Positions 30,305 through 50,047 of a stretch of 64,000 nt of DNA are shown here, in pieces. The position numbers and the translations under genes are program-made. Numbering within the stretch: position 1 is the first letter of the stretch; every line of letters begins with the position of its first letter. Source of the DNA: Vulcanimicrobiota bacterium (GTDB lineage Bacteria; Vulcanimicrobiota; Vulcanimicrobiia; Eremiobacterales; Eremiobacteraceae); assembly GCA_963805945.1 (NCBI GenBank), contig CAWDVP010000001.1, positions 192,001 to 256,000 on the forward strand, in the 5' to 3' direction. The notes beneath the pieces were generated by a model that worked only from the letters and a program-made list of their open reading frames with translations, made no database searches and had not been told where the DNA came from.

Positions 30305-30310
30305 TCAATA

Positions 30311-31764: not shown

Positions 31765-31807
31765 GACACGACCTGTCCCGGTCGATGGACGCGGATGTGA
31801 AGAGCCG

Positions 31808-31851
31808 CTTCACATCGAGTTCGCCTGGCCGTAAGAGACGTGCGGTACCCT
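31808..31851 (+). promoter_or_regulatory. Direct-repeat site (CTTCA-N6-GTTCG) plus -10 TACCCT; likely leaderless xfp promoter
   Basis: Same geometry as five other promoters in the island; -10 lies 6 nt before the ATG. Confidence 0.55.
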
Positions 31852-31857
31852 GGATGC

Positions 31858-34240
31858 ATGACGATCCTCCTGGACCGTGCGTCCGGAGCGCGCCTCGAGC
31901 ATTTGGAGCGCTATTGGCGCGCGGCCAACTATCTCGGCGCGATCCAGCTCTACCTCAAAGACAACGTGCTGCTCGAGCAGCCGCTGCGAGCAGCGCACGT
32001 CAAAGAGCGGCTGCTCGGCCACTGGGGCACGCAGCCCGGGCTGAACCTGATCTACGCGCACCTCGACCGCCTCATCGCGGACACCGGAGCGCGGATACTG
32101 CTGGTGGTCGGTCCCGGTCACGGGGCACCGGCGATCTACGCCGACCTCTTCCTCGAAGGCAGTCTCGGACACCGCTATCCGGAGTTCTCCCGCAACCGCG
32201 CGGGCGTTGAGCGGCTCGCGCGGCTCTTCTCATGGCCCGGCGGCCTGCCGAGCCATCTCAGCGCGTTCTCGCCGGGCGCACTGCATGAAGGCGGCGAGCT
32301 CGGCTACAGCATCGCCCACGCCTTCGGCGCGGCGCTCGACAACCCGGATCTCATCGTCGCGTGCATCGTCGGCGACGGCGAAGCCGAGACCGGGCCGCTC
32401 GCCGCCGCGTGGCAATCGAACAAGTTCCTCAATCCGGCCAGCTCGGGCGCCGTGCTGCCGATCCTGCATCTCAACGGCTACAAGCTGTCGGGTCCTGCGC
32501 TCTTCGCGCGCATGAGCGCGCTGGAACTGCATCAGTATTTCGTCGGCTGCGGCTACGACGTCCGCCACATCATCACCGACGACGACCATGGCGATGCGCA
32601 TCGACAGCTATGGAGCGCGATGAACTGGGCGTATGCCCGTATCCGGCACATCCAGGCCGAGGCGCGCGAAGGCCGGGCGATCGCGCCGCCGGCATGGCCG
32701 CTCATCGTTCTGCGCACCCCGAAGGGATGGACAGGCCCGCGCGAGCTCCACGGCCGGCCCATCGAGGGCACCTTCCACTCGCATCAATTGCCGCTGCCCG
32801 ATCCGCGCGGCGATCCCGAGCAATTTGCCGCGCTCGAAGCGTGGCTGCGCAGCTACCGCCCGGACGAACTGTTCGATGATCCAGGGAGCGCCGCGTTCGG
32901 ACGTGCTCGCGGTCATCCCGCCGGACGCGTTGCGCATGGGTATGAGTCCACACGCGAACGGCGACGCCCGGCCGTTGCGCCTACCCTCGACCCACGCATA
33001 TGCGGTCGACGTCGGCACGCGCGGTGCCACCGCTGTCTCCGCGACGGAAGTCCTCGGGGGCTTCTTGCGCGACACGTTCCGGCTCAACGTCGAGCAGCGT
33101 TGCTTCCGGTTGATGTGCCCAGACGAGACCATGTCGAACAAGCTCGAAACGGTCTTTGAGGCGACTGACCGCGCGTTCATGTGGCCGCTCGTCGAGAGCG
33201 ATGAGTTCTTGTCGCGTGATGGACGCGTGATGGAGATCTTGAGCGAGACGACCTGCGAAGGCTGGCTGGAGGGCTACGTGCTCTCCGGACGGCACGGCGT
33301 CTTCGCCTGCTATGAGGCGTTCGCCACCATCGTCGACTCGATGGTGTCGCAGCACGCGAAGTGGCTCAAGACCGCCCGCGAAGTCACGTGGCGGCAGCCG
33401 GTCCCGTCCTTGAACATCCTGCTCACCTCGCACGCGTGGCGGCAGGACCACAACGGCTATTCGCACCAGGGGCCGGGGTTCATCGACGCGCTGATCAGCA
33501 AGAAAAGCTCCATCGTCCGCGCCTATCTGCCGCCGGACGCGAATTGCCTCGTGTCCGTGTTCGAGCATTGCCTGCGCAGCCGCGACCACATCAATCTGGT
33601 CATCGTTTCCAAGAACGACGCGCCGCAATGGCTTTCGATGCAGGAGGCGGAGCAGCACTGCGCGCGCGGCGCGTCGATCTGGGATTGGGCGGGCGACGAG
33701 GGCGACGGCGCCGCCGAGGTCGTGCTCGCCGCCGCGGGTGACGTGCCGACGCTGGAAACGCTCGCCGCCGCGTGGCTGCTGCGCAGGCATGCGCCGGAGT
33801 TGCGCGTGCGCGTCGTCAACGTCGTCGATCTTTTCGCGCTCGCCGAGCCCGACGAGCATCCGCACGGCCTCGACGCGCAGACCTTCGCGCGATGCTTCGG
33901 CGAACATCTGCCGGTCGTATTCGCGTTCCATGGCTACCCGCGTGTCATCCACGAATTGGTGCACCGCCGGCCCGACCCGACGCGCTTCCACGTCCGCGGC
34001 TATATCGAGGAGGGCTCGACGACGACGCCTTTCGATATGGTGGTGCGCAACCAGGTGAGCCGCTATCATCTCGCGCTCGAAGCGCTGCGCCGCGCCGGTT
34101 CGAAGAGCACTGCGGTCGCGGCCGCGACGGATCTCTTCAACGACAGGTTGGCGGCGCATCGCACGTACGTGGTCGAGCACGGCGTCGACATGCCGGAGAT
34201 AACCCAGTGGATGTGGGCTGATGCGGGCACGCCGTCGTAG
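31858..34240 (+). CDS. xfp: Phosphoketolase (one frameshift near 32880)
   Basis: LLGHWGT, GPGHG, HEGGELGY, GDGEAETG, LSE..CEGWLEGY, WRQDHNG.SHQ, GYIEEGSTTTPF. Confidence 0.95.
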
Positions 34241-35534
34241 CGGCTCGCCGCGCGGCGCGACCTCATACCTCTCGTGCGATGCGGGGTCGAGCAGCTACAA
34301 AGCCGCGCTGTACGACGTCGGGTCGCCGCTGCCGCTCGATCCGCCTGCGCCGCGCTGGTCCGGCGAGATCTCGTGGAAGCACCTGCCCGGCAACGCGTCC
34401 GTCCGTTCGTCCTGGCAGGATGGCCGGGTGAGCGAAAGCGCGCTCATGCTGGAACGCCCTCTCGATGCGCCCGGCCGGCTGCTGCACGAGATGGCTGCGG
34501 CGGCGGTGCCCGCGTTCCCGGCGCCGGGCGACGTCGACGCCGCGGTCCATCGCATCGTGCACGCCGGTGACCTGCGGTCTTCGCCCGCCCGCGTCACGAT
34601 GGAGGTGCGGCGCACCATCGCGGCGGCGGCACCGCTCGCGCCGGAGCACAACGAGCTGGCGCTCGCCGGCATCGATGCGCTGAGCCGGGCGCTGCCCAGG
34701 GCCGAACAGTTCGTCGTCAGCGACTCCGCATATCACGCCGACATGCCCGACGCGGCGTCGACGTATGCGGTGCCGATGGCGTGGCAGAAGGTGTGGGGCA
34801 TCCGCAGGCTGGGCTTCCACGGGATCAGCCATAAGGATGCCGCGCAGCGCAGCGCTCGTCTGATCGGCGCGCCCTTGCGCGGGCTCAAAATCGTGACGTG
34901 CCATCTCGGCAACGGCTGTTCGCTTGCCGCGACGGCCGCGGGCTGCAGCGTCGACACGACCATGGGCTGGACGCCGCTCGAAGGCCTCGTCATGGGTCAA
35001 CGCTCGGGCAGCGTCGACCCGGGCATCATCCTCTATCTGCTCGAGCGCGGCCGCTATACGCCCGCCGAGCTGGCGCGCGTGCTCAACGAGCAGTCCGGCC
35101 TGCGCGGGATCTCCGGGCTGTCGGGTGACATGCGCGAGATCATCGCCGCTGCGACCGGCGGCCACCCGCAGGCGACGCTGGCGTTCGACGTCTTCACCCA
35201 TCGCCTGCGCGCGGCGATCGGCGCGATGACGGCGAGCCTCGGCGGCATCGACGTGCTGACGTTCACCGGCGGCATCGGCGAGAACGCGGCGGAGGTCCGG
35301 CTCGCCGCATGCTGCGGCCTCGAATTCCTCGGCATGCGTCTCGACGAAGAGCGCAATCGCGGCGTCGGCGCGAAGGACGCGGATATCGCGATGCCCGATT
35401 CGCGCGTGCGCATCCTCGTGGTGCACGCTCGCGAGACCTGGGCGATGGTTCGCGAATGCGCGCAGGCGTTCGAACGCCAACCCGAGCTCCGCTCGGGCAC
35501 TACCGACGGTTCTCGCGGAAGCAAGGAGCTGTAG
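34221..35534 (+). CDS. ackA: Acetate/propionate kinase
   Basis: AGSSSYK, HRIVH, LAPEHN, GFHGISH, CHLGNG, MGWTPLEG, FTGGIGEN. Confidence 0.92.
   Translation: MRARRRSGSPRGATSYLSCDAGSSSYKAALYDVGSPLPLDPPAPRWSGEISWKHLPGNASVRSSWQDGRVSESALMLERPLDAPGRLLHEMAAAAVPAFPAPGDVDAAVHRIVHAGDLRSSPARVTMEVRRTIAAAAPLAPEHNELALAGIDALSRALPRAEQFVVSDSAYHADMPDAASTYAVPMAWQKVWGIRRLGFHGISHKDAAQRSARLIGAPLRGLKIVTCHLGNGCSLAATAAGCSVDTTMGWTPLEGLVMGQRSGSVDPGIILYLLERGRYTPAELARVLNEQSGLRGISGLSGDMREIIAAATGGHPQATLAFDVFTHRLRAAIGAMTASLGGIDVLTFTGGIGENAAEVRLAACCGLEFLGMRLDEERNRGVGAKDADIAMPDSRVRILVVHARETWAMVRECAQAFERQPELRSGTTDGSRGSKEL
35481..35503 (-). repeat. REP family C copy in ackA 3' end
   Basis: One mismatch to 771-793. Confidence 0.7.
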
Positions 35535-35537
35535 ATC

Positions 35538-35994
35538 ATGGGACTCTTCCACACCATCCTCGTGCCCATCGACGGGTCGGAAGCCTCAGACGCCGCGTGC
35601 GCGCTCGCCGTGCGGCTCGCGGCGGAGCACGGCGCGTCGATCGCTTTCATCAACGTCGTGGAGACGGACAAGATCATCGCCTCCGTCGTCCCCGGGCAAG
35701 GCTACGCCGACCCGATGCCGGCGATCGAGGCGCTGCGCGCGGGGGGCGGCGCGATGCTCAAGGACGCGCTGGACGCTCGCCAAGGCGGCTGGCGTCGCCG
35801 CCACGTCTGAGCTCGCAGAAGGCGATTGCCTCCAGACCATTCTCGATCGGGCCAAGAGCGGCGACGCAGACCTCATCGTCATGGGCAGCCATGGCCGGGG
35901 CGGCGTGGCGCGCCTCATGCTCGGCAGCATCGCCGAGGGCGTGCTGCGAAACGGCACCACGCCGGTGCTCGTCACCAAGGCGCACAAGGACTGA
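35538..35994 (+). CDS. Universal stress protein (one frameshift)
   Basis: ILVPIDGSEAS, DLIVMGSHGRGG..LGSIAEGVLR..PVLV. Confidence 0.9.
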
Positions 35995-35999
35995 CGCCG

Positions 36000-36452
36000 A
36001 TGCTAGGACATCTCGACGCCGACGAGATCGACGAGCTGCTCTCGCGCGGGATCGTCGGGCGCATCGGCTGCCACGCCGGCGGGCGCACCTATGTCGTGCC
36101 GATCACCTACGCCTATGAAGACGGCGCGATCATCGGTCACAGCGCGAACGGCTTGAAGCTGCAGATGATGCGCGAGAATCCGAACGTGTGCTTCGAGGTG
36201 GACCAGATGGACGATCTGGCGAACTGGCGCAGCGTGATCGCGTGGGGCCGATATGAGGAGCTGGGCGGCGCTGAGGCGGACCATGCGATGGCGCAGCTGC
36301 TCGGCAAGCTGCTGCCGTTGACGGCGACGAGCGAGACGAGCCATCCCGTGAAGGACCTCGCGCATCAGCATCGCGCGATGGCCGAAGGCCTCACGGCCGT
36401 CGTCTATCGCATCCGCCTCACGGAGAAATCCGGCCGCTTCGAGAGGCGCTAG
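36000..36452 (+). CDS. Pyridoxamine 5'-phosphate oxidase / NimA-family flavin-binding protein
   Basis: GRIGC..YVVPITY, G.KL.MMRENPNVCFEVD, WRSVIAWG. Confidence 0.88.
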   Translation: MLGHLDADEIDELLSRGIVGRIGCHAGGRTYVVPITYAYEDGAIIGHSANGLKLQMMRENPNVCFEVDQMDDLANWRSVIAWGRYEELGGAEADHAMAQLLGKLLPLTATSETSHPVKDLAHQHRAMAEGLTAVVYRIRLTEKSGRFERR

Positions 36453-36456
36453 ACCA

Positions 36457-39022
36457 GTGGCTCGCACGAGCCCGGGCGACGCCGCCGGCGACGGTTGGCG
36501 CGCGGTAGAGTTGGGCGCGTCGGCTCGCATGTCGACCGCTGACGTCTTCACCGCGTTGGACGGTTCGCCGCAGGGGCTCTCGTCGGCGGAGGCGGCGCGA
36601 CGGCTGGTCGTCGCCGGTCCCAATTCGCTGCACCGGTACCACGCGCACGCAGGCGCCGTCCTCACCCGTCAGCTGAACAACCCGCTACTGCTGTTGCTCG
36701 CTGCCACCGCGATCGCAGCCGTCCTCCTCGGCGAGAAGACCGACGCGCTCATCATCTTGGCCATCGTCGGACTGAGCATCGGGCTCGGTTTTATCAACGA
36801 GTATCGCTCGGCGCGCGCGATCGAAGCGCTCCAAGCACAGGTCACGCATTCGGCCGTCGCCCTGCGCGACGGTCGCGTACAAGGGCTTGACGTCGCGACG
36901 CTGGTGCCCGGCGACGTCATCCTCTTGGATGTCGGTGACATCGTGCCCGCCGACGCCCGCCTGCTCGACGTCGCCGGCCTCGAGTGCGACGAGAGCGCGC
37001 TCACCGGCGAGTCGCAGCCCGTGGAGAAATCGGCGCTGCCGATGTCGACGGCGGCCGGCCCGCTCGAGCTGACGTCGTGCGCGTTCATGGGCACCGTCGT
37101 GCGCGGCGGCAGCGGCCGCGCCGTGGTCGTCCGCACGGGGACGCGCAGCGAGTTCGGCGCTATCGCCCAGCGGTTGAGCACCCGCCTCCCGGAGACGGTC
37201 TTCCAACAGGGGCTGCGCAAGTTCTCGACGATGCTGGTGCAGATCACGCTCGTGCTTTGCATCATCATCTTCATCCTCAACCTCTGGCTGCTGCACCGCC
37301 CGCTCTTCGAGTCGCTGCTGTTCGCCCTTGCCATCGCGGTCGGGCTCACGCCCCAGCTGTTGCCTGCCATCGTCACGATCGGGCTCGCGCGCGGCGCGAG
37401 CATGATGGCCCGCAAGTCGGTGATCGTCAAGCGCCTCGTCAGTATCGAGGATTTCGGCAACATCGAGGTGCTTTTCACGGACAAGACGGGGACGCTGACG
37501 GAGGGACGCATCACCTTCAGGGGCGCGATCGACGAACATGGCTCGCCCTCGGACGAGATCCTCTCGCTGGGGCTGTTGTGCAACGCGGCTTCGCCACAAG
37601 ATGGGGGCGCCATCGGCGGCACGCCGCTCGATCGCGCGCTGTGGGAAGCGCCGCCGCCCGCCGGACTGACGGGCAGCACACGCCTCGGTGCGGCGCCATT
37701 CGACTACACGCGGCGCCGCATGTCGGTGCTCGTACGAGGATGCGCTCGGACATCGCACCATCGTCACCAAGGGCGCCCCCGAGGCGGTCTTCGCCTGCTG
37801 TGCGCAGGTGCCCGCATCGCTGCGCGCATCGCTTGACGCGCAGTTCGCGGCCGGTTCGCGCGTCGTCGCCGTGGCGACTCGCGATGCGGGCGCGGCGACG
37901 TCGGTGAGCGCGGCGGACGAACATGACCTCACGCCGGCGGGCCTGCTGGTCTTCGAAGACGCGCCGAAAGCCGACGCACGCGAATCGCTCGACCGCTTGC
38001 GCGCGCTGGGCGTGGAGGTCAAGCTGCTGACCGGTGACAACGAGCGCGTGGCGCAGAAGGTGTGGGCGGATCTCGGCCTGGGCGAGGCGCGCTGCCTCAC
38101 CGGCGTCGAGATCGAAGCGATGGCGGATGCGCAGCTGCGGCGTGAGTTGCCCGGCGTGTCGATCCTCGCGCGCGTCTCGCCCGAACAGAAGTCGCGGATC
38201 ATCCGCGCGCAGCGGGCGACGGGGACGGACGTCGGATTCCTCGGCGACGGCGTCAACGACGCCATCGCGCTGCACGACGCGGACGTCGGCATCTCGGTCG
38301 ATTCGGCGGTCGACGTGGCCAAAGATGCGGCGGACATCGTGCTGCTCCGCAAGGATCTCGGCACGCTCGCCGACGGCGTCGTCGAGGGTCGCCGCATCTT
38401 CGCCAACACGATCAAGTACGTGCTCATGGGCACCTCGTCCAACTTCGGCAACATGGTGAGCACCGCCGGCGCGTCGCTCATCATCCCCTTCTTGCCGATG
38501 CTGCCGTCGCAGATACTGCTCAACAACCTGCTCTACGATGCGAGCGAGATGACCATACCGACCGACAACGTCGACCCGGAGATGCTGCGCCGGCCGGCGC
38601 ATTGGGACATCGGCATGATCCGCAGGTTCATGGCCGTGTTCGGACCGATCAGCTCGCTCTTCGATTTCGCGATCTTCGGCGCCCTGATCTTCATCTTCCA
38701 TGCGGGAGAGACGATGTTCCAGACCGGCTTCTTCGTCGAAAGTCTCGTCACGCAGACGCTCGTCATCTTCGCCATCCGCACGCGGCGCGTGCCCTTCTTC
38801 CGCAGCCGGCCGAGCGCGGCGCTGACGATCACGACGCTCGCGGCGGTCGCGATCGGCATATCGCTGCCGTTCTCGCCGCTCGCGGGCCTCTTCGGCTTCG
38901 CGCCGCTGCCGCAATTGCTCTTCGGAACGATCATGGCCGCGATCGTCACGGTCTACTTCACGCTCGTCGAGACGGCCAAGACCTTCTTCTACCGGCGGGT
39001 CATCGCCGAGGCGGGCCGATGA
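36457..39022 (+). CDS. mgtA: Mg2+-translocating P-type ATPase (one frameshift)
   Basis: [43 protein letters not shown]. Confidence 0.88.
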
Positions 39023-41740
39023 GCGCCGGCGGCGAGCGCGCCTGGCCGCACCGGCTCGACGCGTTGTTCTCACCGCGGAGCGTCGCGGTCATCGGGGCGA
39101 GCGAGCGGCCGCACAGCGTCGGCCGCATCGTCTTCTCGAATCTCACCGACGGGTCGTTCGGCGGCGCCGCGTTTCCGGTGACGCCGGCGCACGCGTCGGT
39201 GCTCGGGCATGCGGCGTTCGCGGACATCGGCGCAGTGCCTCGCCCAGTCGACCTCGCGATCATCGCGACGCCTGCGGCGTCCGTCCCCGGCATCGTCGCG
39301 CAGTGCGCCGCCGCCGGCGTCAACGCCGCCATCATCCTGTCGGCGGGGTTCCGTGAGACGGGCGCTGCGGGCGTCGAGCTGGAGCGGCGCATCGCGCTCA
39401 GCGCCGCCAGCACGGGCCTGCGCATCCTCGGCCCCAATTGTCTCGGGCTGATGTCGCCGGGCAGCGGTTTGAACGCGAGTTTCGCCGGCGAATCGGCTCT
39501 GCCCGGGTCTGTGGGATTCGTGAGCCAGAGCGGCGCGCTGTGCACCGCAGTGTTGGATTGGAGCCTGGGCGAGCGCGTCGGCTTCAGCGCGTTCGTGTCG
39601 GTCGGCTCGATGCTCGACATCGGCTGGGCCGATCTCATCTACTATCTCGGTGACGACCCGGCGTGCAAGAGCATCGTGTTGTACATGGAGTCGGTCGGCA
39701 ATGCCCGCACGTTCTTGTCGGCGGCGCGCGAGGTGGCGCAGTCCAAGCCGATCGTGGTCATGAAGGCCGGCCGGACGGCGGTCGCCGCGCATGCCGCCGC
39801 CTCGCACACCGGCGCGCTTGCGGGCAGCGACGACGTCATCGATGCGGCGCTGCGACGCTGTGGCGTGCTGCGCGTCGACGCGCTCGAAGACCTCTTCCAG
39901 ATGGCAGACGTGCTTTCGAAGCAGCCCCGGCCTCGAGGCAGACGACTCGCCATCGTGACCAATGCCGGCGGCGCCGGCGTGATCGCCGCGGACGCGCTCA
40001 TCCGGGGCGGCGGCGAGACGGCGACGCTGTCGGCCGCCAGCATGGCAGCGCTCGACGTCTTCTTGCCCCCGAGCTGGAGCAAGGGCGACCCGATCGATAT
40101 GTTGGGCGACGCCGATCCCGCGCGCTACGAGCGCACGCTTGAGATCGTGGCGGCGGACGAGGGCGTGGACGGGCTGCTCGTCGCGCTCGCACCGCAAGGC
40201 GTCGCCGATGCAGCCGACGTCGCCGCACGGGTGGCCCAAGCACGGGCGCTTGGATCGAAAGCCCGTGCTCGCGGCCTGGATCGGCGGACCAGGGGTGAGC
40301 GCAGGCGCCGCCGTGCTGCGCGACGCCGGCGTGCCGGTGTTCACCTATCCGGACACCGCGGCCCGCGTCTTCAACGACATGTGGCGCAGCGAGGCGAATC
40401 TGCGCGCGCTGTTCGAGACTCCCGCGCCTACCACGGAACTTGACGAGGCCTCGCGGCGCGCGGTCGCGGCCGAAGTCATCGCCGGCGCGCAGTCACGCGG
40501 GCGTACGGTGCTCACCGAAGCCGAAGCGAAACGCATGCTCGCCGCATATGGCATCCCGACGGTGCCGACGGCGAGCGCCTCGAACATCGCGGACGCCATC
40601 CTCGCCGCGAAGCGGATGGGCTATCCCGTGGTCGTGAAGCTCAACTCCGAGACGATCACGCACAAGAGCGAGGTCGGCGGCGTGTGCTTGGACGTCGCGG
40701 ATGCGAGCGGGGTCGAGAGCGCGTATCGCCAGATCGAAGCGTCGGTGCTGGCGGCGACGGGGCCGGGAAACTTCGCGGGCGTGAGCGTCGAGCCGATGAT
40801 CCGTCGGCGTGGGATCGAGCTGATCCTCGGCAGCGCCGTCGACGCGCAGTTCGGACCGACGCTCTTGTTCGGCACGGGCGGGACGCTCGCTGAGGTGCTC
40901 GCCGACAGCGCGGTCGAGCTGCCGCCCTTGACGACGACGCTCGCGCGGCAGCTCATGGAGCGGACGAAGATATACCGCGCCCTCAAAGGCATCCGTGGCG
41001 AGCCGCCGGCCGACCTCGCGGCGCTCGAAACCACGCTCGTCCGCTTCGGCACATTGGTCATGGAACAGCCGCGCATCCGCGAGATCGAGATGAACCCGCT
41101 GCTCGCCGGGAGCGATGGCGTGCTCGCGCTGGATGCCCGCGCGATCCTCCATCCAGCGGAATCGCGCGACGAGGACCTGCCGCGCCCGGCCATCCGCGCC
41201 TATCCGGCGCAGTATGCTGGTGAGTGCGTGTTGCGCGACGGCGCGCGCCTCCACATCCGGCCGATCCGTCCCGATGACGAGCCCATGATGCGCGAGTTCC
41301 ACGGCGCGCTGTCGAAGGAGAGCGTCTACCATCGGTACGCGGGCATCGTCTCGCTCGATCAGCGCATCGTCCACGAGAACCTCTCGCGCGTGTGCTTCAT
41401 CGACTACGCGCGGCAGATCGCACTCGTGGCGATCGCGGGCTCCACGATCGTCGCGGTCGCGCGGCTCATCCGTGCGCACGATGCGGATGAAGCGGAGTTC
41501 GCGCTCGTCGTGACGGACGCGTACCAGCGCCGCGGCCTCGGCATGGAACTCATGCGACGCCTATTGGCCATCGCCCGCACCGAACGCATCGGCGCCGTCG
41601 TCGGCTACATCTTGAATGAGAATCTCGGCATGCAGCGCATCTGCTCGACGCTCGGCTTCACGCTCGAGCCGGGTGACGCGAAGGATTTCGTCCGCGCGGT
41701 GTATCGGGTGACGCCCGACGTCCCGACCGGGCCGATCTAA
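39019..41740 (+). CDS. NDP-forming acetyl-CoA synthetase-like + GNAT (Pat/YfiQ-type protein acetyltransferase; one frameshift)
   Basis: [37 protein letters not shown]-terminal GNAT ([16 protein letters not shown]). Confidence 0.88.
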
Positions 41741-41756
41741 AGATCGGCCCCTACAT
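41729..41756 (-). repeat. REP family A copy, supplies the pat stop codon
   Basis: GGGCCGATCTAAAGATCGGCCCCTACAT. Confidence 0.8.
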
Positions 41757-42196
41757 CAAGATTTGTTCGAGCGTACTGCCAGGACCGGGATGGGCGACGC
41801 GCGCAGCACGCCTTCCGCGATGCTGCCGAGGAACAGGCGTGCGAGACCGTGGCGGCCGTGACTGCCGATGACGATGAGAGCGCAGCCGCGGGCGGCGGCG
41901 GCGTCAAGGATGGCGCGCACCGGCTCTTCCTCTTGCAGCACAAGCTCGTGTTGCACGCCCGCGCTCTTCGCGCGGGCACCCGCCTCGGCGAGGATCGCCT
42001 GGCCTTCGGCACGCAGTTGGTCGAACATCGGATTTCGGCCGCCGCCGTGGGCCACGATCGGCGCGTCCAAAACCGACAGGTCGAGCGCGTAGCAGAAGAT
42101 GAGCGAGCTGTGCCCCTTGGCCAGCGCTATCGCGAGGTCCGTCGCCGCGTGCGCGCAGTGCGATCCGTCGACGGCGACGAGGATGCGTTCGAACAC
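41756..42196 (-). CDS. Universal stress protein
   Basis: ILVAVDGS, LIVIGSHGRHG..LGSIAEGVLR. Confidence 0.92.
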   Translation of the reverse strand: MFERILVAVDGSHCAHAATDLAIALAKGHSSLIFCYALDLSVLDAPIVAHGGGRNPMFDQLRAEGQAILAEAGARAKSAGVQHELVLQEEEPVRAILDAAAARGCALIVIGSHGRHGLARLFLGSIAEGVLRASPIPVLAVRSNKS

Positions 42197-42266
42197 GGAC
42201 TGCCTGCCTTCCGCTTCGATGATACCGCCGGCTCAGGAAGAGGCCGTGAATTCCAGGCCCGCTTCT

Positions 42267-42863
42267 TCACACCTCGTGGATGGCGCCTTCCGATCGAGCG
42301 CCGAGCTCGGCGACGAGCTCCTCGATGAACCGATCGAGCGCCGGCCAATCGGTATACTCGTAGTCACGCGACGTGTCGGTGTCACCGCCCTCCCGCCTCG
42401 CGATGTCTTTCATCACGAGACGCAACAGCACGTTGTAATGGCTATAGAGCAGCGCGCCGGCGATCGGCATGACGCGGGCCGGGCGCCAGTGCGTCTCCTC
42501 GAAGAAGGCGTCGAGCATGCCTTGTACCTCATGCGCCGCCTTCGCCCGCGCTTCGGGGCTGGCGGACGCCTTCTCGGCGCCGGCCTCCGAGAGGCTGATC
42601 GAAAGGAGCGCCGTCCGCATGTGTTCGAGCATCGCCTTGTGCTTGCGCACGAAAGCGATCATCTCGGGCTCGTGGTGCCCGGTATGGATCGACGCGACGA
42701 GGATGACGGCGCTATAGGCGCTCAGATCGATATCGCCGTGCATGCTCGCGACATCGACCACTTCCTCGGGCACCGCGTGCGTCCGGACGGTGGCGGCGAC
42801 GTGTTCGGCCACCCGCTTCGCCTGGCCCTCGCGTGTGGCGTAGGCGATGAGAATCTGTTTCAC
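42267..42863 (-). CDS. hemG: HemG-type flavodoxin (menaquinone-dependent protoporphyrinogen oxidase-like)
   Basis: YATREGQ, ASIH.G, AGALLYSHY, DTSRDYEYTDW. Confidence 0.78.
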   Translation of the reverse strand: MKQILIAYATREGQAKRVAEHVAATVRTHAVPEEVVDVASMHGDIDLSAYSAVILVASIHTGHHEPEMIAFVRKHKAMLEHMRTALLSISLSEAGAEKASASPEARAKAAHEVQGMLDAFFEETHWRPARVMPIAGALLYSHYNVLLRLVMKDIARREGGDTDTSRDYEYTDWPALDRFIEELVAELGARSEGAIHEV

Positions 42864-42888
42864 GCAACCCTCGATCTTCGGCGAGAGA

Positions 42889-43356
42889 TCACGAGCGGGC
42901 GCTCTCTTCCATGACGTCTTTGATGCGGCGAAGCAGTTCGCGCGCGGTCTCCTGTGCGATGCGGTGGCCCAACGCCATATCGAACACCTGCCCCGCTGGA
43001 CCGAACGGCGGCTCGTAGTCGCCAGTCAGCGAGAGGAAGCATCGGCCGCCCGGCTCGGCGTGCAGCGTGAGCGAACCCTTGAATGTCGGAAAGGCGCCGC
43101 CGTGCTTCGGTGACCAGTGCAGCGACAATTGCTGCTGCTGGCGATCGAGCTCGTCGCCGGCCGGCGCATACGTGGCGACCACCTCCCGGCCGATGCTCAC
43201 GCCGCCCGGCACGCCGAGCACGTCTCCCGGCAGCTTCAACTCCAGCGTCCCCGGCGTTGCGTTGGGAACGGCGAGCTGGTCCATATACCATTCCAAGTAC
43301 GACGGCACTTGGGCCGCGGGCCAGCGCACGAGCAGGCCTTCATGGAGATGTGCCAT
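42889..43356 (-). CDS. Hypothetical protein, SRPBCC/START-like stress-cluster type
   Basis: FPTFKGSL..L.GDYEPPFG.AGQVFD..LGHRIA. Confidence 0.65.
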   Translation of the reverse strand: MAHLHEGLLVRWPAAQVPSYLEWYMDQLAVPNATPGTLELKLPGDVLGVPGGVSIGREVVATYAPAGDELDRQQQQLSLHWSPKHGGAFPTFKGSLTLHAEPGGRCFLSLTGDYEPPFGPAGQVFDMALGHRIAQETARELLRRIKDVMEESARS

Positions 43357-43362
43357 GCCTCT

Positions 43363-43406
43363 ATTCCACCGCACCGGTCTGCCGGGCATATGAACTTCCG
43401 GTGAAG
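43363..43406 (-). promoter_or_regulatory. Direct-repeat site plus -10 TGGAAT (leaderless)
   Basis: Plus-strand TGAAC 43391 and TGAAG 43402; -10 at 43363-43368. Confidence 0.6.
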
Positions 43407-43453
43407 TCCGGCGGGCGTGCGGGACCGCTCTCGCCTCGACCGAAGGTGCCGTC

Positions 43454-44458: not shown

Positions 44459-44490
44459 CGCGGCCTCCCCGGTCGGGGGAGAGCCGCGCT
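44457..44490 (-). terminator. Hairpin terminator between adh and hsp20
   Basis: AGCGCGGC-CTCCCC..GGGGAG-GCCGCGCT stem followed by ATTTTC on the minus strand. Confidence 0.55.
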
Positions 44491-44524
44491 GCCGCCTCCA
44501 TGGGCGGTGACTTGTACGGGCCGA

Positions 44525-45001
44525 CTAGCCCTTGATGCCGATCCGTTCGGCTTGGGCTGCTTTCGGCGCCGGTATCTTGACCTTGAGGATCCCGTGCTCG
44601 TACTCCGCTTCGACCTTCTTCGGGTCGATGGGCTCCGGGAATGTGAGCGAGCGGAGGAACTCGCCGCGCTGGCGTTCGCGATAGAAGTACTGAGGACGAT
44701 CCTCTTTCTTCATCTCTTCGCTGCGCGCGGTGATGGTGAGCGCCTTGCCGCTGGCCTGGATCTCGATGTTCTCCTTCTTCATCCCAGGCAGCGCGCACTC
44801 GACGACATACATGCCCTCTTTCTCGTACACGTCAAGATCGAAGGTGAAGGCCGGCGTCCGGAACGCCGTTTGCGCGGCGGGCAGCCAGCCAAGAAGCGGT
44901 TTGAGGCCTTCGCTCATGCGTGTGAATTCCGCGAATGGGTCATATAGTTCGACCGTCTGCAGTTCTTTGGTGGCTCTCTCGCCGTTGATGGTGGTCGCCA
45001 T
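44525..45001 (-). CDS. Hsp20/alpha-crystallin small heat shock protein
   Basis: LPGMKKENIEI, RERQRGEFLRS, AEYEHGIL. Confidence 0.95.
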   Translation of the reverse strand: MATTINGERATKELQTVELYDPFAEFTRMSEGLKPLLGWLPAAQTAFRTPAFTFDLDVYEKEGMYVVECALPGMKKENIEIQASGKALTITARSEEMKKEDRPQYFYRERQRGEFLRSLTFPEPIDPKKVEAEYEHGILKVKIPAPKAAQAERIGIKG

Positions 45002-45053
45002 GATGTCCCTCCTTGTTCAGAGCGGTTCCGGTTTTGCCCGGCGACCTACAGCA

Positions 45054-45098
45054 AGCGTACTCGCGTCATCAGAGCGATGCTATGAAGATGGCGTGAGG
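45054..45098 (-). promoter_or_regulatory. Direct-repeat site plus -10 TACGCT upstream of hsp20
   Basis: Plus-strand TGAAG 45083 and TGAGG 45094. Confidence 0.6.
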
Positions 45099-45109
45099 GT
45101 TGCGACTTT

Positions 45110-45814
45110 TCACGACCCAGCGCCTCGCTGCGCCGCGTGCTCGAGCAGCCTGCGGACCTCGTCGTCTTGGGTCTGGGAGAAATCTTCGTACCACGCGCCG
45201 ACGGCGAAGAACGGATCGGGGGTCTGCGCGCACACGACCTCGTCGACCATTTCAGCGAGTTCGGCGGCCGCCTCCGGCGCGGCCACAGGGACCGCGACGA
45301 CGATCGCCGCGGGCCGCTCGCGCCGCAGCGCCTGCACGGCGGCTTGCATGCTCGAACCGGTCGCCAGCCCGTCGTCCACGAGGATCACGGTGCGGCCTTG
45401 TACGACCGGTGGCGGGCGATGGTTGCGGTATGCAGCCTCACGGCGTTCCACTTCGTGACGCGCTTGCTCCACGATCTCCGCGATCGTCTGCTTCGGCAGA
45501 TCGAGGTGGCGGGCCAGTTCCTCGTCGATCAACACCAGCCCGCCGCTTGCGGCGGCGCCAAGCGCCAGCTCTTCATAGCCCGGCACGCCGATCTTCTTGA
45601 CGACGAGGATGTCGAGCGGCACGCGGAGCGCCGACGCGATCTCAAAGGCGACGGGCACGCCGCCGCGGGGCAACGCCAGGACGACGACGTCAGGACGATC
45701 TGCGAAGCTAGAGAGCAGGCCGGCGAGCACGCGCCCGGCATCGGTGCGATCGCCAAACCCATGCGCCCGCGGGTGTGTCCGGGCGCCGGCATGGCTGCGA
45801 TCGAGTGTGTTCAT
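45110..45814 (-). CDS. Phosphoribosyltransferase (Rv0571c/Rv2143-like)
   Basis: DR.DAG, LALPRGGVPV, VDDGLATG, AVGAWYEDF. Confidence 0.9.
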   Translation of the reverse strand: MNTLDRSHAGARTHPRAHGFGDRTDAGRVLAGLLSSFADRPDVVVLALPRGGVPVAFEIASALRVPLDILVVKKIGVPGYEELALGAAASGGLVLIDEELARHLDLPKQTIAEIVEQARHEVERREAAYRNHRPPPVVQGRTVILVDDGLATGSSMQAAVQALRRERPAAIVVAVPVAAPEAAAELAEMVDEVVCAQTPDPFFAVGAWYEDFSQTQDDEVRRLLEHAAQRGAGS

Positions 45815-45851
45815 GGCTCATCTCGCTTTTCTCAAAGCGTGCGCGCCTGCG

Positions 45852-46007
45852 TCAGCGTCTCCGCCGCTTGGTCTTTGGATCGAGCTCGGCCCGTCGTTTG
45901 CGCGCGTCGACGCGCTCGTATTCCTCGATGCGCGCGATGGACAGCCTCGCATTGTCCGGCTTGCCGTGCCGCATGGTCGAGCGCGTCCGCTTCTTCGGCT
46001 TCTTCAC
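45852..46007 (-). CDS. Small very basic hypothetical protein (51 aa)
   Basis: GTG-start MKKPKKRTRSTMRHGKPDNARLSIARIEEYERVDARKRRAELDPKTKRRRR; below ORF-track cutoff. Confidence 0.4.
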   Translation of the reverse strand: MKKPKKRTRSTMRHGKPDNARLSIARIEEYERVDARKRRAELDPKTKRRRR

Positions 46008-46019
46008 GGGCAGACAGCC

Positions 46020-46050
46020 ATAGCGATGCCGGGGTCTCCGGCATCGCTAT
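46020..46050. terminator. Perfect 13-bp hairpin downstream of the cyc2-like gene
   Basis: ATAGCGATGCCGG-GGTCT-CCGGCATCGCTAT; no U-tract. Confidence 0.45.
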
Positions 46051-46077
46051 CCGAGTGCGCGCTCACGGGTGCTCCTC

Positions 46078-47244
46078 CTAGTGCAGCGCTCCGAAGGTCG
46101 TGTCGAATTGCAGGTTCATCCGCCACGCCGGCATCGTGCCGCTTTGCATCCCCACCTCGCCGTTGAGCGTCCACGCGGTGGCCGCACGCGACGAGACGTG
46201 GCGCGAGACGACGATGCCGAGATCGACGTTGCCGTATTGGGTGATCGTGCCCAACCCGTCGTTGGTCATCTCTTTGCGAACGCCGAGCATGACCACGTTC
46301 TTGTAGAGCGGTTCGGTGAGGTCGATCGAGTAGCCGTAGCTGTGCGCCGGGCCGAACGCGGGACCGGCGTTCGAGTCGTTGTTGTTCTGCACGAGCGCGA
46401 ACAATCCGGGGAGGCCGTGCTGCGGGTCGATCTCGATATATGGTCCGACCGCGCTGTAATTGTCAAAGGAGCCGTCCGAGAGCGGATACGAGCCCGTCGC
46501 TCCGTACACGCCTGCCTCGATCGGCTTATCCGCGCGTGCGTATGCGAGGCGGTACTGGAACGTCCGGTCGGACTCCCAGTCGAAGGCGGTGTTCAGATTG
46601 TCGCCGGTGGTCACATAGGCGGCTTCGGCGACGTAGCCCGGACGGATGTATTGCATCTTCGCGCCCCAGCGATTGGACGACAGGCCGTACGTGTGCTCGC
46701 CGACGGTCATCGACGGCGGTACGAATCCGGACAGCTCGAACCACTGGCTGAACGGAGAGGGAGCCGGCAGTTCCAGCTTACCGACAGTCAAGTGCCCGTC
46801 ACGGTGGAGCAGGTTGTTGTAGGTCAACCACAGCGTGTCGGTGCCGCCCGGCTGATCGTTCTGCTGGATCCATTGGTGCAGATGCCAGGTGATGTCGTTG
46901 CCTATGTAGCCCGCGCCGTGCAGCGACAGATTGCCGGTCTGCATAACGTACGGCTCGGCGGCGTCCTGCGTGTCGTAGAAGATCGCTTCGGCGCCCCACA
47001 GCGGGAAGGCCTTATGGATGGTGCTCGCGTCCAGCGACGAGTAGTCGCTGCGCTGCACGTATCGTCCGTACGCGTTGAGCGCCGGCACGGAGGAGTGGCA
47101 GACCTCGCAATTGATGCCGTACGCTTGGGCGAAGACCGGCATGGCCTGGGTCGGGCGCAGGCTCTCGATCACGAACGCGACCGCGAGCACGCCCCCGACG
47201 ATCAGGATGGTAGCCCGGATGGTGCCTCGGGCGGGCGCGTTCAC
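46078..47244 (-). CDS. Cyc2-like monoheme cytochrome c-porin fusion
   Basis: Signal peptide then MPVFAQAYGINCEVCHSSVPALNAYGR, followed by ~320 aa of amphipathic beta-strand-like sequence. Confidence 0.75.
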   Translation of the reverse strand: MNAPARGTIRATILIVGGVLAVAFVIESLRPTQAMPVFAQAYGINCEVCHSSVPALNAYGRYVQRSDYSSLDASTIHKAFPLWGAEAIFYDTQDAAEPYVMQTGNLSLHGAGYIGNDITWHLHQWIQQNDQPGGTDTLWLTYNNLLHRDGHLTVGKLELPAPSPFSQWFELSGFVPPSMTVGEHTYGLSSNRWGAKMQYIRPGYVAEAAYVTTGDNLNTAFDWESDRTFQYRLAYARADKPIEAGVYGATGSYPLSDGSFDNYSAVGPYIEIDPQHGLPGLFALVQNNNDSNAGPAFGPAHSYGYSIDLTEPLYKNVVMLGVRKEMTNDGLGTITQYGNVDLGIVVSRHVSSRAATAWTLNGEVGMQSGTMPAWRMNLQFDTTFGALH

Positions 47245-47597
47245 GGCTTGACCTCGACCGTCAGCACCATGTCCCCATGTCCAGGGCCGCACGGTTGGCT
47301 GCAATGGATCTTATAGGTCCCGGCCGTCTTCGGCGTCACCATGACGTCGACGAACTTGCCCGGCGCGATCGTCGTGTCGGGGATGCCGAGTTCCGTGGAC
47401 GAGATGCCGTGCACGCCGCCCGATGAGGTGAGATGCAGCGTGGTGGTCTCTCCGACGTGCATCTCGACGGTCGCCGGGGTGAACTTCCAGTTCGAGGCCA
47501 CGACGTCGACCGTGGGATGGGCGAAGGCCGGCAGTGCCAGCATGAGAACCGCGCCGCCAGCAAGGCCGGCAAGCCGATGTGCGAGTGAAAATGTCAT
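47241..47597 (-). CDS. Exported stand-alone cupredoxin with CuA motif
   Basis: Signal peptide (..PAFA|H), WKFTP, VHG, CSQPCGPGHGDM; stop overlaps next start (GTGA). Confidence 0.85.
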   Translation of the reverse strand: MTFSLAHRLAGLAGGAVLMLALPAFAHPTVDVVASNWKFTPATVEMHVGETTTLHLTSSGGVHGISSTELGIPDTTIAPGKFVDVMVTPKTAGTYKIHCSQPCGPGHGDMVLTVEVKP

Positions 47598-47619
47598 GGT
47601 TATCTCTCCTTCTGACATC

Positions 47620-47673
47620 AGTCTACCAGAGCGGGTCGCGCAGGACGTGAAGCCGTTTGGAAGGTGTGTGAAG
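47620..47673 (-). promoter_or_regulatory. Triple direct-repeat site plus -10 TAGACT upstream of CuA-cyc2 operon
   Basis: Plus-strand TGAAG 47648, GGAAG 47659, TGAAG 47669. Confidence 0.62.
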
Positions 47674-47770
47674 GGTGCGACTAGGGACGCACGGGTGCTG
47701 GCGGCGCCTGCGAGAATCGTCCCGCTGAGTTAGACGCATCGGCCCAGGAAGCGACCGCTCTATCGGCCGG

Positions 47771-49402
47771 TCACCACGTGCGCATGCCGGGCGCGCCGTA
47801 CGGATGCACGTGCACCAGGTCGTACATCGGCCCGACGTAGGCGAGGAAGGCCAGCACGACCGCCGCGAGCGCCCACATGCCGATCTTGTCGAACGCGGCC
47901 GGCGTGGGCATGGCCTCGTCCTCGGGCTGCGCGAACGTCACGGCCTCGTCCGCGGGCTCATCGTGCAGGCGCGTGCCGATCGCCACGGTCGCGAACATGA
48001 GGATGCTGATGAAGAGGATCGCGCCGCCGATCGCCGCCGCGATCATCTCGGGCATCCACAGGCTCGCCGCGGCCGAACCGAAATACGTCACGTCGTCGGT
48101 GCGCCGCGGCGAGCCGAGCAGGCCGGCCCAATGCATGGCGGTGGACATCACGAGCATCCCGATGAACCAGGCATAGGTCTGTGCCAGCGCCAGTTTCGGC
48201 GCCCACAACTTGCGCCCGGTGAGCGCCGGCACCAGCCAATAGGCGATGCCGACGAACGACAGCGCCACCGGGCCGCCCACGGTCACATGGAAGTGCCCGA
48301 CGATCCACATGGTGTTGTGCACCAGCGTGTCCATGCTGTACGAGGCGTTCACCACGCCGCCGAAACCGCCGAAGATGAACAGGATCATGCCGAGCGCAGG
48401 CCCCGCGAACGCCGGGTTGCTCCACGGCAGCGTGGCGACGGCGCCGATGAAGCCGGGGCGGCCCTTGCGCCGCGCGGCCATCTCGAACGAGGCGAAGATC
48501 GCGAACGCGGTCATGATCGACGGGATGACGACGCCGTAGGTCGTCATGGTGTGGACCCATTTCCATGCCGCCGAGATGCCCGGCTCCATGAACTGGTGAT
48601 GCAGACCGACCGGCGTCGAGAGGATCAACAGCAGCAGAAACGCCAGACGCGTGAGCGCGTCGCTGAACACCTTGCCGCCGTATAGCGTCGGCACGATGTT
48701 GTACCAGATCAGATACGCGCCCATGATCCAGAAGTAGACGAGCGGATGGCCGAAGTACCAGAACAGCATGCGCGTCATCATCACGTCGACGGTCGGCGTC
48801 CAGCCGAGCGACCACGGGATGAGGAAGAACAGCATCTCGATCGCCACGCCGATCGTGGCGATGAACCACATGACGAACGTGCAGGTGGCGCCGTGCACCA
48901 TGAGCGGCAGCGCCTCGCCGGGGCGCGTCCGCCGGAAGTACACGACGTTCTCGAGGATCTCGTAGAGCACGAACCAGGTCGCGACGACGAGCACGGTCGC
49001 GCCGATGTAGAACGACGGATGCGCCTTGAGCGGCGCGTAGAACGTGTAGAGCACCGACGCGCTGCCGCTGAGGATGGCGACGGTGGCGGTGAGCGTGCCC
49101 GCGAGCATCAGCGCGAAGCCCGACCAGGAAAGCGCGAGCGAGCGCTCGCGCGGTATGGTGCGATACACGCCGAACAGCGACAGCCCGCAGATGAAGAACG
49201 TGGTGAACACGATCGCCATGAGCACGCCGTGCGCGGTGAGCATGCGATAGTAGTCGAACCAGTGCGGTGCGGCGAACCAGCGCGCGCGAGAGAACGCTTG
49301 CAGCAGGCCGAAGATCGCGCCGACGACGATCGCGCCGGTGGCCGTGTACACGTAGCCGAGGATGAGACGGTTCTCGCGCTGGACCTGCGCCGACGCCGCC
49401 AT
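47771..49402 (-). CDS. cbaA: ba3-type (B-family) heme-copper oxidase subunit I
   Basis: YYRMLTAHGV, LYTFYAPL, FWYFGHPLVYFW, GLHHQF, HNTMWIVGHFH, PRR. Confidence 0.93.
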   Translation of the reverse strand: MAASAQVQRENRLILGYVYTATGAIVVGAIFGLLQAFSRARWFAAPHWFDYYRMLTAHGVLMAIVFTTFFICGLSLFGVYRTIPRERSLALSWSGFALMLAGTLTATVAILSGSASVLYTFYAPLKAHPSFYIGATVLVVATWFVLYEILENVVYFRRTRPGEALPLMVHGATCTFVMWFIATIGVAIEMLFFLIPWSLGWTPTVDVMMTRMLFWYFGHPLVYFWIMGAYLIWYNIVPTLYGGKVFSDALTRLAFLLLLILSTPVGLHHQFMEPGISAAWKWVHTMTTYGVVIPSIMTAFAIFASFEMAARRKGRPGFIGAVATLPWSNPAFAGPALGMILFIFGGFGGVVNASYSMDTLVHNTMWIVGHFHVTVGGPVALSFVGIAYWLVPALTGRKLWAPKLALAQTYAWFIGMLVMSTAMHWAGLLGSPRRTDDVTYFGSAAASLWMPEMIAAAIGGAILFISILMFATVAIGTRLHDEPADEAVTFAQPEDEAMPTPAAFDKIGMWALAAVVLAFLAYVGPMYDLVHVHPYGAPGMRTW

Positions 49403-49404
49403 CG

Positions 49405-49872
49405 CTATTTCACCTCGATCGCGCCGTACATGAAATGATGACCGGCGCCGCAATACTCGTTGCACAGCAGCAGATGCTGACCGGGCGTGCGGAAGACATG
49501 GGTCGCCTTGCTGACCCAGCCGGGCACCACGAGCATGTTCACGTCGGTGTCGGTGATGAAGAAGCCATGTACGACATCGGGACTCGTGCTGTAGAACGTC
49601 ACCTTCGCGCCGACGGGCACGGTGATGCGCGGCGGCGTGAACGAGAACACGCGGGCCACGACATAGGCCTCATACTCGTTCGGGCCGGTCTGATGCAGGC
49701 CCGGCGCGTCGAACGGCGCGGTCTGCGCCACCTTGGTGGGGTCGATGGTCTTCTCGTAGCTCGGTGGGATGATGCCGTCCATGAGCGCCGCGCTGCCGAT
49801 GATCGCCAAGAAGATGACGAGCGCCACGACACCAAAACCGAGCCACAGCTTCTCGAGCCGATGGACGTGCAC
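49405..49872 (-). CDS. cbaB: ba3-type oxidase subunit II (CuA)
   Basis: One TM helix, SPDVVHGF, CNEYCGAGHHFM. Confidence 0.93.
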   Translation of the reverse strand: MHVHRLEKLWLGFGVVALVIFLAIIGSAALMDGIIPPSYEKTIDPTKVAQTAPFDAPGLHQTGPNEYEAYVVARVFSFTPPRITVPVGAKVTFYSTSPDVVHGFFITDTDVNMLVVPGWVSKATHVFRTPGQHLLLCNEYCGAGHHFMYGAIEVK

Positions 49873-49873
49873 G

Positions 49874-49993
49874 CTACCACCTGCTCGCCATGAGCGCGTA
49901 CATCAGAAGCCAGCCGACGACGATGAAGACGCCCAAGCCCGTGAGAAAGCGCGCGGTGCCCGGCAGCGGTTGGTCGTCGCGGTCCTGGCTCAT
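49874..49993 (-). CDS. cbaD: ba3-type oxidase subunit IIa (39 aa)
   Basis: MSQDRDDQPLPGTARFLTGLGVFIVVGWLLMYALMASRW, single TM, directly upstream of cbaB; missing from ORF track. Confidence 0.75.
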   Translation of the reverse strand: MSQDRDDQPLPGTARFLTGLGVFIVVGWLLMYALMASRW

Positions 49994-50002
49994 TTGGATG
50001 CC

Positions 50003-50047
50003 ATGATACCAGCCGTCCGACGGACGGCGTATGAAGATTCTGCGAAG
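50003..50047 (-). promoter_or_regulatory. Direct-repeat site plus -10 TATCAT upstream of cbaDBA
   Basis: Plus-strand TGAAG 50032 and CGAAG 50043. Confidence 0.62.

Follow-up and report, generated by a model that had tools for sequence, protein, structure and literature searches.

Genes and promoters of the island

The window analysed here is a stretch of 64,000 nucleotides (nt), C1:192001-256000 (contig CAWDVP010000001.1), of a 2.3 Mb genome that is 82% complete. The genome was placed in the Eremiobacterota by the names of homologues (Candidatus Eremiobacteraceae, Vulcanimicrobiaceae, Baltobacteraceae) and by atlas taxa. We describe a direct repeat, here called the box, that lies ahead of five promoters in an island of fermentation, stress, heme and respiratory genes. 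Next to it lie the genes of an OmpR/PhoB-family response regulator (regulator 30311) and of a histidine kinase without a sensor domain (kinase 31027), which are candidates for acting on the box. The features are listed in Table 1.

Table 1. Features of the island by position in the window, with genome-wide ranks of the boxes under the all-relatives and other-genera models (aa, amino acids)
Feature	Position	Strand	Details	Rank, all-relatives	Rank, other-genera
OmpR/PhoB-family response regulator	30311..31030	+	239 aa; candidate binder of the box
Sensor-less cytoplasmic histidine kinase	31027..31764	+	245 aa; DHp and ATPase domain
Invariant cysteines of the kinase	codons 31258, 31336, 31357, 31462		Cys78, Cys104, Cys111, Cys146; ATPase domain
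Extra inverted half-site upstream of xfp box	31796..31802	-	TGTGAAG on the + strand
xfp box	31808..31825	+	CTTCACA-N4-GTTCGCC	4	21
Predicted xfp -10 box	31846..31851	+	TACCCT; 6 nt ahead of ATG 31858
Predicted xfp operon	31858..41740	+	phosphoketolase, acetate kinase, Usp, pyridoxamine-oxidase-like protein, P-type cation ATPase, acyl-CoA synthetase/GNAT
Usp gene	41756..42196	-
usp promoter, atypical	42219..42271	-	-10 TATCAT 42219-24; half-sites 42234-51; inverted half-site 42265-71
HemG-type protoporphyrinogen dehydrogenase	42267-42863	-
START/SRPBCC-fold protein	42889-43356	-
srp-hemG promoter	43363..43406	-	box CTTCACC-N4-GTTCATA 43389-406; -10 TGGAAT 43363-68; ATG 6 nt downstream	3	2
Hsp20 gene	44525..45001	-
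hsp20 promoter	45054..45098	-	box CCTCACG-N4-CTTCATA 45081-98; -10 TACGCT 45054-59	14	3
Cyc2-like monoheme cytochrome	46078-47244	-
Cupredoxin with CuA-type motif	47241-47597	-
cup-cyc2 promoter	47620..47673	-	three half-sites 47646-73; -10 TAGACT 47620-25	2
Heme-copper oxidase operon	47771..49993	-	39-aa subunit 49874-49993; subunit II 49405-49872; subunit I 47771-49402
cba promoter	50003..50047	-	box CTTCGCA-N4-CTTCATA 50030-47; -10 TATCAT 50003-08; ATG 9 nt downstream	1	1

Pfam and NCBIfam agree with the gene map that a first-pass annotation had drawn from the sequence alone. In the window they assign the regulator, the kinase, phosphoketolase, acetate kinase, two universal stress proteins (Usp), a pyridoxamine-oxidase-like protein, a P-type ATPase, an acyl-CoA synthetase/GNAT protein, HemG, a zinc alcohol dehydrogenase (Zn-ADH), Hsp20, a phosphoribosyltransferase (PRTase), a cupredoxin and COX1/COX2. 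The oxidase had been labelled ba3-type; COX1, COX2 and the 39-aa subunit are present and subunit I scores far below the CtaD cut-off. The name Cyc2-like is based on one N-terminal CxxCH motif observed in 33/33 homologues, and a weak porin lead comes from an atlas porin family found on 20% of one cluster. Cyc2-like genes have been reported in Eremiobacterota metagenome-assembled genomes (PMC8357290). The protein previously named SRPBCC matches the START fold (best Z 11.4, root-mean-square deviation (rmsd) 3.4, 141 residues aligned), its family has no Pfam entry above cut-off, and it possibly binds a quinone or lipid. START-fold proteins of one uncharacterised family adjoin the regulator in most genomes, often in two or three copies.

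The direct repeat and its conservation

The first-pass annotation had proposed a regulon of six promoters defined by CTTCA-N6-CTTCA-N22/23-TAnnnT. All 19 sequence words that it quoted are present where it had placed them, and a half-site was observed 22-23 nt before a TAnnnT-like hexamer at all six promoters, the hexamer of srp being TGGAAT. The full pattern was observed at xfp, srp, hsp20, cup and cba but not at usp, where the pair of half-sites sits 11 nt from the -10 box. We therefore count five promoters rather than six.

The box was recovered de novo by expectation maximization on the upstream regions of cbaB, cup and xfp in relatives, with the genome of the window left out. Seventy-five such regions returned cTTCACAnnatcTTCAca with 16.5 bits. 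The same motif came from 62 regions taken only from other genera (39 genomes), with a log-likelihood of 219 versus 59-60 for three shuffles. The form found in relatives alone is cTTCACA-N4-cTTCAca with the -10 box 22 nt downstream; the improved consensus is CTTCACA-N4-CTTCAY(A) with an 11-bp period. An untrained -10 matrix placed its best spacer at 22 nt (mean score -0.4 bits there and -2.1 to -7.4 bits at other spacers, n=34).

When one mismatch at most is allowed, the strict pattern occurs four times in the 2.3 Mb genome, three of these within the island, and all four matches are intergenic and directed at a gene. With at most two mismatches 15 matches were found, and xfp, srp and usp are not among the matches listed. 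When 4.6 million genome positions were scanned with the all-relatives model, the five promoters took ranks from 1 (cba) to 14 (hsp20), and usp is missing from its 43 genome matches; the other-genera model ranks cba, srp, hsp20 and xfp as in Table 1. Among 12 column-permuted matrices, 0-1 of each top 14 fell inside the island. No box scoring at least 9 was found for adh, prt or pnpox of this genome.

The predicted -10 boxes are supported by the start codons of xfp, srp and cbaD, which lie 6, 6 and 9 nt past them respectively. The hexamers at the -35 positions are unlike TTGACA, as expected of activator-dependent promoters. Four same-genus cup promoters carry a fourth half-site, and in these the -10 box is shifted back by exactly one 11-bp period. 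We considered TTCACA as an ordinary -35 box and rejected it; it ends 20-21 nt before the -10 box, which is too far, and it is repeated.

In all cross-genome counts, related genomes are tallied as if independent. The tallies over 61 genomes include three unpublished genomes (G010, G013, G016) counted as regulator-less, on which the motif, the alignments and the synteny do not depend. In the 43 genomes that have the regulator the fixed pattern matched 155 times, versus 63 times for a reversed control; in the 18 genomes that lack the regulator the figures are 32 and 23. These counts include one recurring match that is identical across genera and probably no promoter. We consider it highly probable that the box is real and activating.

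At xfp, the extra inverted half-site ahead of the box was also observed at 4/4 same-genus xfp promoters. A GTCCCG word and this inverted TGTGAAG half-site (window 31775-31802) are retained upstream of the box in same-genus genomes. The inverted repeat was considered as an RNA hairpin; its z-scores of -1.4, -1.1 and -0.2 and the lack of a U-tract do not support a terminator. The xfp mRNA is predicted to be leaderless.

The regulator and its linkage to the targets

Regulator 30311 carries a receiver domain (PF00072) and a Trans_reg_C winged helix (PF00486), both above cut-off. D58 and K107 are invariant in 22 orthologues, and the recognition helix RTLDRHxxNLR was also found to be invariant among orthologues. 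With the orthologue cut at an E of at most 1e-90, orthologues were found in 43/61 genomes. In 36 of these 43 genomes no more than 20 kb separates the gene from cbaB or cyc2, and in 32 no more than 10 kb; in six of the other seven, these genes are on other contigs. The regulator was found in 37/39 genomes with cbaB, and 16/61 genomes have neither. Gene order around the regulator varies widely among genera, and the linkage to cbaB/cyc2 is kept despite these rearrangements. A regulator alignment scan of the named genomes gave mostly generic OmpR loci, which were taken as controls. The first-pass proposal of a direct-repeat activator box linked to this OmpR gene thus gains support from footprinting in relatives, the fixed spacing and synteny, and the box is quite probably bound by regulator 30311.

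A PucR-type regulator and a glutamine synthetase gene precede the regulator-kinase pair (window 27792-31030), an arrangement confined to this genus. Nitrogen control was dropped because the glnA linkage is genus-limited. Tandem regulator copies occur among the loci L192, L193, L201 and L208, with three in G045.

A kinase without a sensor domain

Kinase 31027 (P0002) begins at the stop codon of the regulator and carries its phospho-histidine at residue 14. It was overlooked by the first-pass annotation, which also named no signal. The structural model consists of DHp and ATPase domains only (predicted local distance difference test, pLDDT, 81.9) and superposes on HK853 with Z 22.0 and rmsd 5.8 over 207 aligned residues, an ordinary DHp and ATPase fold. 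No membrane segment was found in the 120 listed homologues (of 515), where the hydrophobic 19-mer score is never above 1.74. One of the 120 is labelled Dormibacteraeota, and a kinase scan of the named genomes gave no matches.

The four cysteines of the ATPase domain are invariant in 25/25 genome orthologues and in 120/120 of the listed homologues. More than two of them were found in 0/48 domains from 25 longer homologues, 0/79 domains from other phyla and 0/5 paralogues, and a longer form that joins a sensor domain to the four cysteines was not found among the longer homologues and control domains. An optional C-terminal cysteine pair occurs in 65/120 listed homologues. HK853 has cysteines at the Cys78 column and adjoining Cys111; a disulfide between them was considered, and a literature search gave no support for it. 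The best solved match to the ATPase domain is SrrB (6PAJ), in which a cysteine aligns with Cys146; the alignment was seen without the partner cysteine.

In 14 genomes of a second family, the regulator is retained and the full cysteine kinase was not found. A FixL-like PAS kinase lies within about 8 kb of the regulator in 12/14 of these genomes. Solved structures matching its PAS domain are FixL or DosP-type heme-PAS domains in 13/14 cases. Among cysteine-kinase genomes outside the family of the window, 1/9 has such a kinase. It occurs away from the locus in 8/31 genomes of the window's family, and the two kinases are therefore not mutually exclusive.

Several shortened forms were also observed. 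Stand-alone proteins of 58-66 aa, which correspond to the His-bearing helix hairpin of the kinase (L191:7589-7762, L206:7831-8028; partial matches in L197, L199 and L207), adjoin the regulator in genomes without the full kinase and may be phosphotransfer or inhibitor mini-proteins. Degenerate kinases (L192, L193, L201, L208) comprise a 178-aa form without the cysteines or the ATP lid and forms of 253-256 aa whose ATP lid is worn. In several relatives a FixL-like PAS kinase and two receiver proteins form a cassette at unrelated places (L279:6790-9062, L280:6102-8256, L281:7289-9245).

Predicted targets beyond the island

Twenty loci, nearly all off-island, were chosen by likeness to the consensus from 150 listed pattern matches, and four sites of this genome were added. 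We called 23 downstream open reading frames (two loci giving none and one locus two) and scanned 22 of the proteins. Low-oxygen-type families account for 13/22: HemA, HemN (TIGR00538 above cut-off), an anaerobic sulfatase maturase-like protein, rubrerythrin, a P-type ATPase, Usp, Hsp20, and two each of BON proteins, pyridoxamine-oxidase-like proteins and PRTases. The remaining nine are STAS, DUF4097, choloylglycine hydrolase, sulfide:quinone reductase-like and DUF411 proteins and four without a family. An ATG was observed 6-7 nt past the -10 box in 9/23 genes. Judged by these predicted sites, the regulon in relatives is wider than the window and includes hemA, hemN, BON and rubrerythrin genes. 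In this genome, at 82% completeness, hemA was not found and hemN only as a 33% match.

Two reports list similar families: the predicted FixK/FNR core regulons hold Hsp20, phosphoketolase, Zn-ADH, HemA, HemN, UspA, P-type ATPase and oxidases (PMC2908626), and in Bradyrhizobium the proteins induced by microoxia comprise, among others, Usp, phosphoketolase, HemN and Hsp20 (PMC6515984). Because the families behind the distant boxes match these lists, the programme likely works like those of FNR, FixK and DosR, yet it is a member of none of them.

A strong off-island box at G000 C2:588891 (L243), kept in several relatives, precedes a sulfide:quinone reductase-like gene with a 6-nt leader, which is likely a further regulon member. 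Box-like sites were also observed before flagellar basal-body sets, upstream of flgC and a flgF-like gene (G000 C4:129054, L247; C2:87056, L244).

Proposed mechanism and alternatives

We consider it fairly likely that the five promoters with the conserved repeat are bound by regulator 30311 once it has been phosphorylated by a sensor-less kinase that reads oxygen or redox state. Taken separately, low oxygen or redox is the likely signal, and there is a little better than an even chance that the kinase cysteines are the sensor. Low oxygen would alter the cysteine site, whose four residues would act as a thiol/disulfide or a metal/Fe-S switch, and the kinase would be active when oxygen is low. 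It would then phosphorylate regulator 30311, dimers of which would bind the repeat head-to-tail just upstream of the -35 position and recruit RNA polymerase to the extended -10 box, often for leaderless mRNAs. The output would be respiration through a heme-copper oxidase fed by the Cyc2-like cytochrome and the cupredoxin, more heme, substrate-level ATP from phosphoketolase and acetate kinase, and protection by Usp and Hsp20.

A bolder form of this proposal, which we put forward tentatively and would rather expect to fail, is a class-wide Eremiobacterota oxygen sensor. Here phosphorylation would be gated directly by an oxygen-labile centre, Fe-S or metal-thiolate, carried by the ATPase-domain cysteines of the sensor-less kinase, the FNR/DosR-like programme would include the Cyc2-cupredoxin-oxidase set, and in some lineages a FixL-like heme kinase would have replaced the cysteine kinase. 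If this were true, microaerobic iron oxidation would be wired into the hypoxia response.

A number of observations weigh against the proposed mechanism. At usp, the half-sites lie 11 and 22 nt upstream of the -10 box, which is no activating geometry. The pair ATTCACG/CTTCCTG there, which ends 11 nt short of the -10 box, reaches 14.1 bits as a pair, against -6.0 for the pair that occupies the activating slot; the observed pair may be repressing, differently acting or a remnant. The cup promoter of this genome is missing from the 233 matches of at least 10 bits of the other-genera model. A box of at least 15 bits was observed in 59/236 orthologous upstream regions of genomes with the regulator, training set included: cup 24/31, cbaB 14/38, xfp 4/8, srp 7/49, usp 6/48, regulator 2/48, hsp20 1/6, pnpox 1/4, adh 0/2 and prt 0/2. 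The low share is partly due to genes that sit inside operons. The regulator gene follows pucR-glnA and has no box of its own, hence nothing points to autoregulation. G011 (97% complete) has a cup box of 27-28 bits and G019 (79% complete) has boxes before usp and hsp20, and in neither was an orthologue of the regulator found. As for the kinase, the loop with Cys104 and Cys111 has a pLDDT of about 64. The four cysteines are predicted, from topology and not from coordinates, to cluster along one edge of the ATPase domain. Finally, fully oxidised SrrB retains about 60% activity (PMC8774646).

The invariant cysteines may also form a structural zinc site. On this account the box and the regulator would act as described and the kinase would be controlled by a partner, for example the START-fold protein or a FixL-like heme-PAS kinase encoded elsewhere. 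We regard this as unlikely, though it is the strongest of the alternatives. In its favour, most genomes have START-fold genes at the locus, 4/6 same-genus relatives encode a FixL-like PAS kinase at another place in the genome, and in some lineages the regulator is retained beside no more than a DHp fragment of 58-66 aa or a degenerate kinase. Against these stand the failure to find a FixL-like kinase in this genome (82% complete) or in 14 others with the full cysteine kinase, the lack of any longer four-cysteine form with a sensor domain among the homologues searched, and the match of one cysteine to the SrrB position.

A different binder of the box, namely an OmpR paralogue, Rex, a CRP/FNR protein or an alternative sigma factor, is improbable. 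Candidate factors do exist, the genome having six OmpR-type domains in all (five besides regulator 30311), two CRP-type proteins, Rex and five LuxR-type domains, the last all outside the window. The box of G011 without a regulator orthologue and a weaker site after another OmpR operon (C2:172493) also fit such a binder. The Rex palindrome is TGTGAA-N4-TTCACA, TTCACA is a Rex half-site, and an inverted copy occurs at xfp. However, in a search of the whole genome for exact Rex-type palindromes with N4-7 spacers, the single match was at xfp with a spacer of 7 nt (6 in G002). The exact CRP- and FNR/FixK-type palindromes TTGA-N6-TCAA and TGTGA-N6-TCACA gave no match in the island and 12 and 2 elsewhere in the genome, and the DosR palindrome, GGGAC-N4-GTCCC, was not found in exact form in the island. 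Moreover, direct repeats of two to four units whose distance to the -10 box is constant suit a winged-helix activator and not a repressor or sigma factor, and only regulator 30311 travels with the targets.

A copper or other metal response like that of CopRS, with Cu(I) bound by the cysteines and copper proteins induced through the regulator whenever copper can be had, is very improbable. In its favour, the CopR half-site has ATCTTCA on the opposite strand and the 11-bp period in common with the box, copper is needed by the oxidase and the cupredoxin, and a weaker genome site precedes a DUF411 protein with a CGCC motif. Against it, the target genes belong to fermentation, heme synthesis and the Usp, Hsp20 and BON families, the island and the 22 scanned distant targets yielded no multicopper oxidase, and FixL-like kinases replace the cysteine kinase.

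Under the oxygen- or redox-reading mechanism, the system supplies a regulator, a box and a list of targets for life at low oxygen in a phylum that is widespread but hardly cultured. A cultured Vulcanimicrobium strain shows slow growth at 1% O2 (PMC9758169). With the Cyc2-like cytochrome and oxidase tied to a hypoxia-type programme, whether and when iron is oxidised becomes testable. The soluble 245-aa kinase would be a minimal model of sensing within a catalytic domain, easy to express and assay. A literature search, with subscription journals and supplements outside its coverage, gave no account of Eremiobacterota regulons or of a sensor-less cysteine kinase system. We regard the kinase as the most novel part of the system.

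Comparison with known systems

The DosRST regulon of Mycobacterium tuberculosis places Usp, Hsp20, pyridoxamine-oxidase-like, PRTase and cation ATPase proteins under hypoxia control, and the same families were observed here. DosRST differs in its NarL-type regulator, its palindromic box and its heme-GAF sensors (for DosT, PMC8534201).

FixLJ-FixK/FNR of alphaproteobacteria shares Hsp20, phosphoketolase, Zn-ADH, Usp, HemA, HemN, heme-copper oxidase and P-type ATPase with the present system (PMC2908626, PMC6515984), and FixL-like PAS kinases lie at the regulator locus in some relatives. It uses CRP-family factors and palindromes, whereas an OmpR-type factor and a direct repeat are found here.

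SrrAB of Staphylococcus aureus, which is ResDE-type, also combines an OmpR-type regulator and a kinase with ATPase-domain cysteines, one of them aligned, and has respiratory and anaerobic targets. SrrB has a redox-sensitive disulfide in its ATPase domain (PMC8534201, PMC8774646). In contrast to kinase 31027, which has no sensor or membrane part, SrrB sits in the membrane and carries Cache, HAMP and PAS domains. Its single disulfide is not kept in all staphylococci, whereas the family of kinase 31027 has four invariant cysteines.

The first-pass annotation had noted that CopR of Corynebacterium binds a TGAAG direct repeat, and this is borne out by TGAAGATTTnnTGAAGATTT (PMC3140484). CopRS of C. 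glutamicum shares the half-site core TGAAG/CTTCA and the 11-bp period. Its site is single and distant, 266-285 bp upstream of a mapped start site, its targets are copper-resistance genes and its kinase senses extracellular copper (PMC3140484), whereas the island boxes abut the -35 position. Targets of that type (multicopper oxidase, copper export ATPase) were not seen in the island content. The likeness is limited to the DNA word because the site position and the targets of CopR differ.

Minor features of the sequence

Frameshifts split four genes of the xfp operon, namely phosphoketolase (near 32870), Usp (near 35800), the P-type ATPase and the acyl-CoA synthetase/GNAT gene. These are likely to be assembly errors. 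Similar breaks were observed at other places in some long-contig relatives. A short protein at G000 C2:247971-248519 (L257) gives a weak match to IscB/HNH nucleases.

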